A stretch of DNA of 64,000 nt, taken from contig OZ242326.1 in assembly GCA_965208325.1 (NCBI GenBank), positions 2,560,001 through 2,624,000 of the forward strand, read 5' to 3'. Position numbers and translations under genes: made by a program. The stretch is from Candidatus Poribacteria bacterium. GTDB taxonomy: Bacteria > Poribacteria > WGA-4E > PCPOR2b. Positions 27,028 to 30,479 of the stretch are shown here, one piece after another; position 1 is the first letter of the stretch; every line of letters starts with the position of its first letter. The notes under the pieces are model-generated. The model had not been told where the DNA came from, did not search any database, and was given only the letters and a program-made list of their open reading frames with translations.

Positions 27028-27480
27028 CTAAACGGTTGCAGGGTCAACAATCACGATGCCTTCGTCGTGGTAACGCTCAAAGTCATTTGTGTTGAAAGTC
27101 AATATATGTGTTACTCTGTTGTAAACCATTGACGCGACTAAACGGGCGTCGAAAGTCTGTATTCCCGATACGTCATATTTCACTACGAGGCGTCGCCATA
27201 TGCGATAGATAGCAGGTGAATCGGTAAGCAAAGGGAAGATTTTCTCTGCTCTTAACAAGAGGTGATCTATTTGGGAAATGTCTAAACCGTAGCCGTTTTT
27301 GACAGTCGATCGGGTTGAAACGGTCCAGAACTCCGCAAAATTCTGCGATGTGGTTTTCAGTACGTCGTTGTTCGCCCACAGTTTATTCACAGCGGATTGG
27401 ACAGTTGTATAATTTGGATCCGTCGTGTGCAAAAGCCGTAAGAGAACATTGGTATCGACCAGATAAATCACGACTATCAA
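27028..27480 (-). CDS. vapC: PIN-domain (VapC-like) toxin (start TTG 27480 or GTG 27471)
   Basis: YLVDTNVL, QNFAEFW, FDARLVASM, ILTFNTNDF. Confidence 0.9.
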   Translation of the reverse strand: MIVVIYLVDTNVLLRLLHTTDPNYTTVQSAVNKLWANNDVLKTTSQNFAEFWTVSTRSTVKNGYGLDISQIDHLLLRAEKIFPLLTDSPAIYRIWRRLVVKYDVSGIQTFDARLVASMVYNRVTHILTFNTNDFERYHDEGIVIVDPATV

Positions 27481-30479
27481 TCGTCCTCGTATATTCCTTC
27501 ACGGCTGACCGCGTGATTTGAGAGGGGTGGGGCATCAGGACCAGCGAATTCCATGAATTTGTCTGCTAGCTGGCCAGCCAATGCTTCTAAATCAAGCCTG
27601 CCTGTTCGGAGGAGATTTTCATGGGCGCGGGCTGCATGCCGACGTACGTTCTCATTGCGGCTTTCAATTCCGGCTTTCAGGATAGTTTCTGCTCCTTCAG
27701 TGTAAATGTCAACGGTGTCACTAGTGAATCCATCAGTTAGCTTTGCAAAGCAGGCGACGACTTTGGCAGTATAATCGGGAAGCATCTCGCACAAAGCGTC
27801 AATTTGAATTGCGACTGACATTTTTTCCGCTTTGCTGACGTCCAGGATCCTGGAGTACGCGTTTAATCGCCAGTGAGCATCTAAACACTTGGCTTTCAGC
27901 CAGAATGTGAACTTGCCGAGTTCCTTGGGTTCTTTACTAGTGAAACGCCAATTAAAAAAGTCTATAATTCTGGCCTTTACAATTGCATTAAGTTCGCCAT
28001 TGGTATCCCGCAAGATTCGACCCACGTGGTCAAACAAATTCTCCCAATGCTCAAGATTGTTGGCAGTAGCCTTGTAATAGTCCTCTAGCAGACTTGTGTC
28101 GCCTGTGAGGGGATACGTCTCCCACAAATAGAAGGTAAATAGTCGTTGGCCAAGTAGATAAATCAGTTGGGTGGCGTTGGATTGCCTCTCATTGAATTTA
28201 GCTAGATTCTGTAGCGCAAATTCAAAATCGCCGCGAAGAACCTTAAAGGTAGGTTTAAACGGTTTATTGCAGCTCAAGAAGCCGTTAAAGGCGGCAAGCC
28301 ATTTGGGGAACTCAGCGCGCGGAAACAAGTCTGATTTGTGTTCAGTCGCCCATGCCTCATTTAGGTAAAAAATTCGATTGTAGTTCTTTCCCAGAATAGC
28401 ATACTCTGGCTGGGTCACGGGCTGTCCCGTTTCCGAAGCAAACCGACTTTCAAGAATCGCCGTTAATTCAGAGACTTCAGATTCTGAATCATGTCTTCGC
28501 ACCCAGAATCCGAATTGAACCAACGCGTCGAGTGCACGGCTTCGCGTGTTATTGATTCCTTCGGTGATTAGGTCGTTTTGGTTCAAAAAGTGCCGCTTGT
28601 CTCGATCCAGCCATGAATCATATTGTGTGCAAAGCATCTTCAGCAGTGTGGAAAGTTGCAGCCGTGCGGAGATGGGAACGTTTACATCGTCTTGCAGGCA
28701 TACTTCGATAAAATCACAGACTGCCCGCCGGGAATTGTACCAGTTAGGGTTGTCTCGGGATTCGTCGCCTTGTTTACCTAGCCTATAGTCTTCCTTGAGA
28801 TCTTGGTCAGGGTGGGAAAGTACCCATTCGCTAAATGATAACCACGCGCTAAGCCTGTCGAAGTGCTTCGATTTTACGTCCGTTTGCATGGCGACAATCA
28901 TCATTCGCACGTAAATGGGTCTCTCAATTTTTTCGCGATTTTCAATCCAGAATTTGCGCCTTTTGAGATTCGGGATAATGTGTTGCGTGAAAAAAGTTTG
29001 AAACGCGACGCTGAGGCCTTCAATGTTGACTTCTATAAAATGATTACCTTTGTAAAGGGGCTTTTCTCCCTCGTACTTGTTTATGTAGGCGAGTAGTTCT
29101 TCATCGGTGAGTTTGGAAAGGTCGTCGGGTGAGCGTGGGCTACGACTAGAAACTGGTCCTCCTCTTGTCTTTATTAGCGGATAGTCGTCATCGGATATCT
29201 CATCCTCAGCCTGAGCCTCAGATTCTAACTGTTGCAAATAGGTTTCATATTCGCCGAATAGCACGGGCGCAAAAGGCTTGAGTTGCTTGCGATGGAAACG
29301 GAGCTGAAGTTGTCTAAACTCGTCCTGGTTAAGGGTATCTTTTGAGGGGCCGCTGCGGATGCAATCGAAAATATGTCTAAGCTCTTCCTTTGTAAGCAAT
29401 GCCGTACCAAACTGTTCACAAGCTCTTCGAATCATTTGTTGAAATTCATAACCGTATTCCAATCGTTGATAATCTTGATAATCTAGAATCATTTGCCGAA
29501 TCCACGGTTTGGTTTGCTCACTTGGATATTTGGCATAGAGGTGCTGGCGCAGGCGTTTGAATATACGCCAGTGCTGGTTGCGCAATGCTTCGTCCAAATC
29601 GAGAATTGAATCGGGTCTTTTTTCGTAAACCCGACGACAAGCGAAGGTGAGTGTATGAACCAGTGATTTATCAGGGGCTTCATAATCATCCTCAGATTCA
29701 TCGAGCCGTACACACCAGTAATCGGAATAGTCGACATCGTTGTCAAAGTCCCCTTGATGCGTTCGCACATCAATCATATTTGCGGCGGCATAGATGAGAA
29801 TGCACGCAACCTTGTAGGGTTCTTCCTCGGCAAGCGGACGAACGCCTTTGGACAATATCTCACCGTATTCCCAACTACCAATTCGAGGGGACGGTTCAAG
29901 TTGCGTCGCCGCTACCCTAGTTGCTATTGCGGCTAAATCTTGCTGATTCTCTCTCCGCCGTTTCCGCTTGTCCCTTTCTTGGGAATCAGGCAAAAACGCA
30001 ACTAGTATTTTTGAAAGTTCCAATGCATCCGATATCTGATTCTCCTTGGTCCAATGGGCTAACAAGTCTGAGTATTGATACGTCCAAACTTGGTGTTCTA
30101 GCTCTAGAGATTCAAGTATTTTCGGCATCAGTTTGGCGGAATGTTCTCCGCGGAGTTCCAATGCAATTTCCAAAATGTCATCATAAACGCTAGGATTGTC
30201 AACTTTAGGGAGTCCCAACACTAAATTAACAACTTGATCGGGCACATCGCACGACACATTTTTGAGGTATTGAAGTTCGGGCCAACGGGGGAATTGAACG
30301 TAGCCATCGTCAAAGTATCTAATTTTTGGGGGTGACTGAAAAATTCCGCGTTTGACGAGCGGTTGAATCCAGAGGGGATTCGACAACCTTGAGAAAAAAT
30401 ACCGGCGCCCGGTTCCTTTTTTGACCAGCCTTAAGGCCTTATCTATCATTTCATTCGTTGGTTTCTTCCAAGATTTCAT
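27477..30479 (-). CDS. Large, probably alpha-helical hypothetical protein with antitoxin-like C-terminal tail
   Basis: 1000-aa ORF, YFFSRLSNPLWIQPL...WPELQYL N-terminus, no Walker A seen; ends PDAPPLSNHAVSREGIYEDD. Confidence 0.8.
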   Translation of the reverse strand: MKSWKKPTNEMIDKALRLVKKGTGRRYFFSRLSNPLWIQPLVKRGIFQSPPKIRYFDDGYVQFPRWPELQYLKNVSCDVPDQVVNLVLGLPKVDNPSVYDDILEIALELRGEHSAKLMPKILESLELEHQVWTYQYSDLLAHWTKENQISDALELSKILVAFLPDSQERDKRKRRRENQQDLAAIATRVAATQLEPSPRIGSWEYGEILSKGVRPLAEEEPYKVACILIYAAANMIDVRTHQGDFDNDVDYSDYWCVRLDESEDDYEAPDKSLVHTLTFACRRVYEKRPDSILDLDEALRNQHWRIFKRLRQHLYAKYPSEQTKPWIRQMILDYQDYQRLEYGYEFQQMIRRACEQFGTALLTKEELRHIFDCIRSGPSKDTLNQDEFRQLQLRFHRKQLKPFAPVLFGEYETYLQQLESEAQAEDEISDDDYPLIKTRGGPVSSRSPRSPDDLSKLTDEELLAYINKYEGEKPLYKGNHFIEVNIEGLSVAFQTFFTQHIIPNLKRRKFWIENREKIERPIYVRMMIVAMQTDVKSKHFDRLSAWLSFSEWVLSHPDQDLKEDYRLGKQGDESRDNPNWYNSRRAVCDFIEVCLQDDVNVPISARLQLSTLLKMLCTQYDSWLDRDKRHFLNQNDLITEGINNTRSRALDALVQFGFWVRRHDSESEVSELTAILESRFASETGQPVTQPEYAILGKNYNRIFYLNEAWATEHKSDLFPRAEFPKWLAAFNGFLSCNKPFKPTFKVLRGDFEFALQNLAKFNERQSNATQLIYLLGQRLFTFYLWETYPLTGDTSLLEDYYKATANNLEHWENLFDHVGRILRDTNGELNAIVKARIIDFFNWRFTSKEPKELGKFTFWLKAKCLDAHWRLNAYSRILDVSKAEKMSVAIQIDALCEMLPDYTAKVVACFAKLTDGFTSDTVDIYTEGAETILKAGIESRNENVRRHAARAHENLLRTGRLDLEALAGQLADKFMEFAGPDAPPLSNHAVSREGIYEDD

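Follow-up and report, generated by a model that had tools for sequence, protein, structure and literature searches.

We analysed a 64,000-nucleotide stretch (hereafter the window) of the genome of Candidatus Poribacteria bacterium, a sponge symbiont, in which a gene for a protein of 1000 amino acids (aa) lies directly ahead of a gene for a PIN/VapC-like toxin. The genome is available as one 4.7-Mb contig and is 95.6% complete. The original prediction held that the large protein is a putative sensor, onto the end of which the neutralising peptide of a toxin-antitoxin (TA) module has been grafted. The features at the core of the locus are the following:

27477..30479, minus strand: open reading frame (ORF) of 1000 aa, the sensor with its tail, as given in the ORF list
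27588..30479, minus strand: sensor body, aa 1-964, an all-alpha solenoid with homology to DSR1 outside its SIR2 domain (PADLOC Dsr1 match, AlphaFold2 model)
27480..27587, minus strand: antitoxin-derived tail, aa 965-1000 of the 1000-aa protein (EALAGQLADKFMEF...LSNHAVSREGIYEDD), assigned from C-terminal homology, selection and predicted PIN binding
27477..27479, minus strand: TGA stop of the 1000-aa ORF, 5 nucleotides (nt) ahead of the GTG of the PIN gene, or overlapped by a TTG at 27480
27028..27471, minus strand: PIN/VapC-like toxin gene, 147 aa from GTG, with its stop codon at 27028-27030 (PF01850; four acidic residues invariant)

As first described, the large protein runs through ...LLRTGRLDL into the tail directly before the PIN gene, and the accompanying claim that no separate antitoxin ORF exists is borne out, there being no space between the 1000-aa ORF and the PIN gene. 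The tail comprises the 36 residues EALAGQ...IYEDD, a part that is missing from most sensor homologs. At the nucleotide level the joint reads GAG GAC GAT TGA / TAGTC / GTG ATT TAT CTG GTC GAT ACC, and in the other fused genes the stop is a TAG one codon later, 2 nt ahead of the same GTG. Because the start MIYL(V/A)DTN is present in all 32 aligned PIN relatives and the GTG is kept in the DNA alignment, we placed the start of the PIN gene at GTG 27471, 5 nt past the sensor stop; this is the likely start on comparison with the relatives, the alternative being the TTG at 27480 that overlaps the stop. The PIN protein matches PF01850 (E=3.1e-10, 41.2 bits against a cut-off of 23.6) and the VapC model TIGR00028 (E=5.6e-11, under its curated cut-off), and its acidic set D6, E47, D108 and D130 is invariant across the 32 aligned PINs, that of the window included. 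Matches in the PDB are remote VapC proteins only (5k8j, E=9e-4; 7vwo, E=1.4e-3). Neither a second copy of the tail (one true match and one at E=0.84) nor a second copy of the PIN gene was found in the 4.7-Mb genome.

Support for the junction was also sought in other sequence data, where contigs of two metagenome runs span it. Run X12, probably the source sample, holds a 4145-nt contig that covers 26325-30469 with zero differences, and run X1, an independent sponge metagenome of 2015 from another study, holds a 928-nt contig that bridges 26913-27822 with 20 substitutions and 0 indels. Since the latter bridges PIN, stop/start and tail without an indel, an assembly artefact is excluded. Runs X2 and X3 contain scattered short pieces of the window only, and no inference is drawn from the parts that they leave uncovered.

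The label of a putative sensor gains backing from a profile match and from the placement of relatives between the mod and res genes of type III restriction-modification (RM) systems. Residues 5-765 match positions 302-1026 of 1227 of PADLOC Dsr1 (PDLC04166, E=6.8e-24); this is the portion of DSR1 behind its SIR2 domain, and the window protein begins at the solenoid. No SIR2 domain was matched in the 1000-aa protein in Pfam or NCBIfam, and the same two collections returned no family above cut-off and no DNA-binding family for it. The AlphaFold2 model is helical throughout, with a mean confidence (pLDDT) of 83.7; along residues 961-1000 the values drop from 71 to 32. Foldseek with the sensor model recovered generic solenoids only (TM 0.15-0.29), with no DSR entry among the approximately 45 best rows, and the sensor profile gave 0 matches to PDB sequences.

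The expectation that homologs of the large protein stop near GRLDL proved mostly right, the typical end being GRFDLLDLDD. Among the 120 best homologs, drawn from more than 1055 relatives, 100 end near ...ENLLREGRFDLLDLDD, 19 including that of the window carry the full tail, and one has a truncated tail. A C-terminal query of 200 residues was then used against 176 genomes of the phylum. Here a match through the tail was seen only in the genome of the window (G000) and in G020, G022, G024, G025, G026 and G028, six species that belong to a single genus of another family, all other large frames stopping at around residue 165 of the query, while many frames of 74-136 aa match the tail alone. Long matches past residue 175 in G067 and G159 were rejected as fusions, being read-through of plain tail-less genes. 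Most tail-bearing forms retain an N-terminal module of the pP_pnuc_1 type.

Tail homology and the predicted PIN-tail complex

The original prediction had the small antitoxins upstream of this PIN subfamily end in P-x-LSD-x-A-(I/V)-SRE-x-IY, and this ending is real. We recovered 30 loci of PIN relatives with 40-63% identity, from Poribacteria, cyanobacteria, Blastocatellia, Latescibacterota and others, and in 30/30 an ORF ends at most 80 nt from the start of the PIN match, mostly 2 nt before it or with a 4-nt overlap. All 30 upstream ORFs end in ...GPDxxPLSDYA(M/V)SRE(S/G)IYEDHP(KL); 29 of them measure 74-116 aa and one 664 aa. In an alignment of 37 tails S987, R993 and Y997 (numbering of the window protein) are invariant, with L986, A990, S992 and I996 nearly so.

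Searching with the tail alone likewise led to small free-standing proteins that share the ending. A tail profile, run at E≤0.001 against 1.84 billion representative proteins, matched 409 of them, of which the best 150 all measure 43-202 aa with the motif at the C-terminus. Congruent with this, the best 80 of 266 metagenome loci yielded 74 complete tail ORFs, which have a median length of 92 aa and reach at most 202 aa. In 53 of the 68 loci of this sample with at least 300 nt downstream a PIN of the family follows the tail ORF immediately; the remaining 15 are without PIN, some having GNAT-like or other genes next. The N-terminal halves of the free antitoxins show weak matches of the ribbon-helix-helix (RHH) type (FitA-like RHH, E=0.008; VapB_Myco, E=0.002; RelB/DinJ, E=5e-4), and Pfam and NCBIfam gave nothing for the tail and the free antitoxins except weak RHH or DUF2281 matches. 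No large fusion appears among the best 150 of the 409 profile matches or in the 80 metagenome loci, so grafting onto large proteins appears rare; large fusions are either rare or masked by tail-less cluster representatives.

A complex was then modelled from the PIN protein and the C-terminal 50 residues of the sensor, using alignments of 32 and 37 sequences, respectively. For the best of three controls the interface score (ipSAE) was 0.01. The complex itself reached 0.84 (runs at 0.85, 0.83 and 0.84), a mark reached by 116 of 157 solved complexes and by 2 of 215 mismatched pairs. The partner pLDDT was at least 78 and the contact agreement at least 96%. In the model, tail residues 961-997 contact PIN residues 7-8, 47, 107-108 and 130, which are the active site. 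Thus the modelled complex, proposed as a check from the outset, passes its controls and predicts the tail to lie across the PIN active site; the model supports binding rather than demonstrating it. A close solved relative of either chain was not found in the PDB, which argues against simple recall by the model.

Origin, selection and recombinant history of the fusion

An unfused arrangement is preserved in G021, where a 232-aa gene, a 962-aa sensor ending in GRFDLMKLGD*, an 81-nt spacer, a 108-aa antitoxin and the PIN gene follow one another on one strand. When the DNA of four fused genes was aligned with that of G021, the joint fell between ...GRLDL and (E/K)ALA.... A deletion between the adjacent genes took the last few codons of the sensor, the spacer and the N-terminal, probably ribbon-helix-helix, half of the antitoxin, and fused ...GRLDL to ...ALA(D/G)(E/Q)L.... 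The accidental deletion-fusion put forward originally as an alternative hence stands as the origin of the gene, a deletion between neighbouring genes, and falls as a rival reading.

Across the 30 sensor loci compared in the phylum, a PIN gene lies downstream in 5 of the 7 with a tail (intact in G000, G024, G025 and G020, frameshifted in G028) and in 1 of the 23 without, namely the unfused G021; the genomes are kin and these counts are therefore not independent. In G022 the PIN gene is deleted and the tail intact, followed by a Peptidase_M78/HTH (ImmA/IrrE-like) gene (L035:2294-3597), and in G026 the PIN gene is gone and the tail interrupted by stops. The ORF after the Peptidase_M78/HTH gene of G022 has a start that by eye resembles DUF4411-type PIN-like proteins.

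Over the 36 codons of the fused tails the ratio of non-synonymous to synonymous change (dN/dS) is 0.02-0.14. The tail of the window differs from other fused tails at 17-20 of approximately 23 synonymous sites and at 9-10 of approximately 85 non-synonymous sites, and judged by these substitutions the fused tail is under strong purifying selection.

The gene of the window did not descend as one piece. Compared with the tail-less P0007, a Candidatus Poribacteria protein, it is 96-100% identical to approximately aa 650 and then 40-68%, and past that point its identity to P0015 and P0016, both of which bear the tail, amounts to 64-94%. The trees disagree accordingly: over residues 1-640 the window protein is sister to P0007 (distance 0.007) and outside the tail clade, and over residues 690-962, with the tail left out, it falls within the tail clade with a support of 0.994, a clade that includes four tail-less members. 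Metagenome cover changes in the same region. Contigs of X1 cover 26913-27822 and 27862-28451 at approximately 97-98% identity, with cover ending at 28451, and at 95% identity or more X1 holds almost nothing between 28618 and 30800. PIN, tail and the C-terminal third are thus joined in X1 to a different front part.

28410..28500, no strand: approximate recombination breakpoint in the sensor gene (aa ~660-690), from the switch in identity, the discordant trees and the end of X1 cover
26094..31455, no strand: segment of ~5.4 kb (repeat-rich spacer, PIN, sensor with tail, 218-aa gene), missing at the syntenic site of G035, a genome of the same genus

By these comparisons the gene has a recombinant make-up: the tail-bearing lineage contributed its last third and its tail as well as the PIN gene. 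This amends the original prediction in one respect: the fusion is not private to this genome, as it defines a clade and reached the present gene by recombination. At the larger scale G035 matches both flanks of the segment at 85-93% nucleotide identity, with 9095-14455 of the query unmatched.

The same tail has also been joined to another immune protein. In a contig of a Poribacteria metagenome-assembled genome (L017, 1126-3563) a complete HsdM (HsdM_N and N6_Mtase, E=1e-63) precedes a PIN gene with a 4-nt overlap, and passes its usual end ...ERKSEGLLNE into ~55 residues from the very end of an antitoxin of the same family. This form occurs in three distinct proteins (P0127, P0279 and P0280) on contigs of 3.7, 11.5 and 35 kb, and the close unfused HsdM P0282 ends in ...GLLNEVLGL. 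On sequence comparison the tail on HsdM is a second, independent graft. A word-indexed search with the tail of this form found one further cluster among 24 candidates, a method too insensitive for fusion counts.

Readings of the fusion and known systems

In our view the tail likely functions as an antitoxin peptide, and the sensor likely serves as the antitoxin of the adjoining PIN. The solenoid protein is cast in this role because its last 36 residues are the end by which the VapB-like partners of this PIN subfamily bind their toxin; binding is predicted by the model, and neutralisation and all steps of release are what we infer from there. The disordered tail of the sensor would lie across the active site of PIN and keep the RNase off. 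PIN would be translated off the same mRNA, starting 5 nt past the sensor stop, and, as the most likely consequence, would be neutralised only while production of full-length sensor continues. PIN would then be set free, and the cell arrested, if the sensor gene were mutated or lost, if the tail were clipped, or if a phage shut off expression in the host. The reading that we favour is thus classical TA logic placed on a defence gene, which would act as an addiction lock and as a fail-safe for the defence operon.

Several points weigh against it. A stable solenoid of 1000 aa makes an odd labile antitoxin. The tail of the window has N988 and H989 where the family has D (at least 90%) and commonly Y. 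No large fusion came up among the best 150 tail-profile matches and the 80 metagenome loci described above, none of which exceeds 202 aa, and the PIN-tail pair is not strictly maintained, since PIN is lost or broken in 3 of the 7 tail-bearing species genomes. Concerning the complex, the ipSAE calibration is only rough because our own alignments were used, and the model may draw on general knowledge of VapBC.

The N988/H989 replacements and the loss or frameshift of PIN in three of seven species genomes are also what would be expected of an inert relic, that is, a neutral leftover with a non-binding tail or an inactive PIN. We hold this to be improbable, as the tail is under strong purifying selection and the catalytic residues of PIN are intact, the cassette was acquired recently by recombination and has a ~98% identical copy in an independent metagenome, and the complex model passes its controls. 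Hardly more weight can be given to the idea that the tail acts on a short product, arising from an in-frame internal start such as M887 or from processing, in the manner of Rpn. Gene callers did give the 115- and 116-aa proteins P0001 and P0002 from the equivalent Met, M887 is present in 20/20 tail forms, and there is a published precedent of intragenic Rpn-type antitoxins; however, 11 of 100 tail-less homologs share this Met, which looks like a clade marker since those inspected belong to sister lineages, and no Shine-Dalgarno-like sequence precedes M887 in the window. That assembly or sequencing joined two genes artificially has a negligible probability and nothing found in its favour, considering the independent-study contig through PIN, stop/start and tail, and the fact that 6 further species genomes, and 18 further proteins within the 120 best homologs, share the fusion.

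More deserving of attention, if still rather doubtful, is a coupling of the toxin to sensing itself. A phage trigger on the solenoid, or the oligomerisation that ensues, would withdraw or occlude the tail and release PIN as an abortive-infection effector, making the sensor antitoxin and switch at once, by analogy to CapRel in cis or to PrrC-EcoprrI in trans. In favour of such a coupling, the host protein is related to the sensing part of DSR1 and found in defence contexts, the recombined unit consists of the C-terminal third, tail and PIN, and a second immune protein, HsdM, bears the same graft. In addition, HEC-03 provides a validated pair of a sensor and a VapC-like PIN without VapB (Payne et al., preprint, in the text available), and immunity components were predicted to act as antitoxins in the available part of Makarova et al. 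2012. On the other hand, no structural coupling to the solenoid is evident, the tail being a flexible appendage past the last helix; PIN is not the sole candidate effector, since most tail-bearing forms keep an N-terminus of the pP_pnuc_1 type; and TA modules are common in defence islands anyway, so that fusion with a defence neighbour could be chance.

Returning to the favoured reading of the sensor as a fail-safe antitoxin, the arrangement resembles a type II VapBC module in having a PIN toxin with four acidic residues, an antitoxin C-terminus predicted over the active site, and an antitoxin frame that ends at the toxin start, with translational coupling. It departs from such modules in that a 964-aa solenoid replaces the N-terminal DNA-binding half, the antitoxin being a large folded protein; because of this replacement, operator autoregulation is presumably lost. 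The latent RNase PrrC, as far as described in the sources available, is likewise inhibited by the immune protein encoded beside it, the type I RM system EcoprrI (PrrI), of which the HsdM fusions with PIN (L017, P0127 and P0280) form the type I RM counterpart. In contrast to PrrC, the peptide here is of the VapB type and gained by gene fusion, and the toxin is a PIN rather than an ABC-ATPase/HEPN-type nuclease. CapRel(SJ46) combines the roles of antitoxin and phage sensor in one polypeptide (available text of Gerdes 2024, mBio), yet there the toxin sits in the same chain and is neutralised in cis, whereas in the present case the toxin is separate and a 36-residue peptide rides on the sensor.

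DSR1, which protects Bacillus subtilis from phage (Garb et al. 2021, preprint, as available in part), shares the homologous non-SIR2 region. Unlike DSR1, the window protein has no SIR2, having instead a 218-aa helical partner (in relatives a fused N-terminus of the pP_pnuc_1 type), the antitoxin tail and the PIN gene. The pair HEC-03, an ABC ATPase with a VapC-like PIN in Hma systems, is similar in coupling a large putative sensor to a PIN without free VapB, nested in a defence system; its partner is unrelated to VapB according to the available text of the Payne et al. 2024 preprint, whereas here the VapB-type tail is visible. That immunity proteins restrain toxins in defence loci has been proposed, with PrrC-EcoprrI as the one classical example named (Makarova et al. 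2012, available part), and PIN toxins occur in type I RM operons (Matelska 2017, available part). The literature on related fusions that we found concerns toxin-antitoxin fusions and toxin domains on large proteins, and no description of an antitoxin peptide grafted onto an immune sensor was found in titles and abstracts, a coverage that leaves subscription journals outside.

Tentatively, a one-step deletion may be able to make an immune protein the antitoxin of an adjoining TA module, and may have done so repeatedly (DSR1-like sensor, HsdM), which would wire changes in the status of this protein, such as trigger binding, anti-restriction attack or proteolysis, to the release of VapC; the cassette of tail and PIN would then spread by homologous recombination with the host gene as homology arm. 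If true, this would represent a naturally evolved, sequence-recognisable form of the coupling of immunity and suicide proposed in 2012. Many defence loci hold toxins without a visible antitoxin, and here the link is legible from the sequence; related genomes contain the precursor before fusion as well as fused and decayed forms. The system hence bears on how immune sensing is coupled with abortive infection, or on how TA modules hinder the loss of defence genes, and the C-terminal antitoxin motif at the ends of large proteins offers a search handle for more such pairs.

Neighbouring genes and further tail-bearing ORFs

Two further genes flank the sensor on its upstream side:

30451..31107, minus strand: gene for a 218-aa helical partner, upstream of the sensor and overlapping its start by 29 nt; homologs lie beside sensors of ~970 aa
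31475..35425, plus strand: type IIG restriction-modification / DrmMI-like gene, 1316 aa (Pfam, PADLOC)

Homologs of the 218-aa partner were found in 43 of the 176 phylum genomes, adjoining the ~970-aa sensors, and sensor relatives of ~1200 aa have a fused N-terminus matching pP_pnuc_1 in place of the separate partner. Two such proteins, P0015 and P0054, exceed the pP_pnuc_1 (PF18165) cut-off with 28.2 and 28.9 bits against 26.3. The partner itself weakly resembles the pP_pnuc_1-bearing N-terminus of the 1190-aa P0015 (BLASTP, E=0.004), and has a language-model feature similarity of 0.90 to PF18165 clusters. No match to it was obtained in PADLOC, Pfam (PF18165 included), NCBIfam or the PDB, and its model is all-alpha. 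The alignment of its family (A5) shows many invariant residues, among them W21, R58, D59, N62, W87, W91, C113 and H123.

The 1316-aa gene matches Eco57I (E=1.6e-32), N6_Mtase and TaqI_C in Pfam, and DrmMI (E=5e-110) and REase_MTase_IIG (E=9e-73) in PADLOC. In G021 (L065, C5:1848000-1862000) and G024 (L066, C1:504000-518000) the sensor module, whether or not accompanied by antitoxin and PIN, is enclosed by the mod gene of a type III RM system on one side and the res gene on the other, all in the same orientation; mod comprises TypeIII_RM_meth and N6_N4_Mtase, and res comprises ResIII, with REase_III at E=2e-145. The mod gene of L066 is split into frames of 469 and 191 aa. The position beside a type IIG RM gene, the placement of relatives inside type III RM systems and the ~5.4-kb insertion relative to G035 form a context that would fit a putative role of the module in phage defence.

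Scans for promoters, terminators and repeats near the genes did not rise above shuffles (14 vs 8.5±2.7; one repeat of 2 copies). Stretches at 26110-26296, 26411-26489, 26503-26966, 25210-25260 and 31249-31384 recur dozens of times in three genomes of the same genus at 70-95% identity, and metagenome contigs pile up over 26120-26560 with many alternative joints. From this distribution, the short sequences around the inserted module look like dispersed intergenic repeats.

The tail was also met in other settings. In P0131, P0149, L004:4654-5004 and L105 (a 202-aa ORF) it comes after a transmembrane helix at the N-terminus and one additional domain, with PIN next in L004. A retropepsin-like domain with a DTGA motif is fused to the tail in L107 (a 178-aa ORF) and adjoins a tail ORF in L103:4268-4645. 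In L142:3702-4253 and L161:649-1056 a GNAT-like ORF instead of PIN comes after the tail ORF. Finally, the gene calls P0001 (115 aa) and P0002 (116 aa), whose contigs measure 21 kb and 374 kb, run from the Met equivalent to M887 through the tail, and may be remnants of broken sensor genes that retained it.

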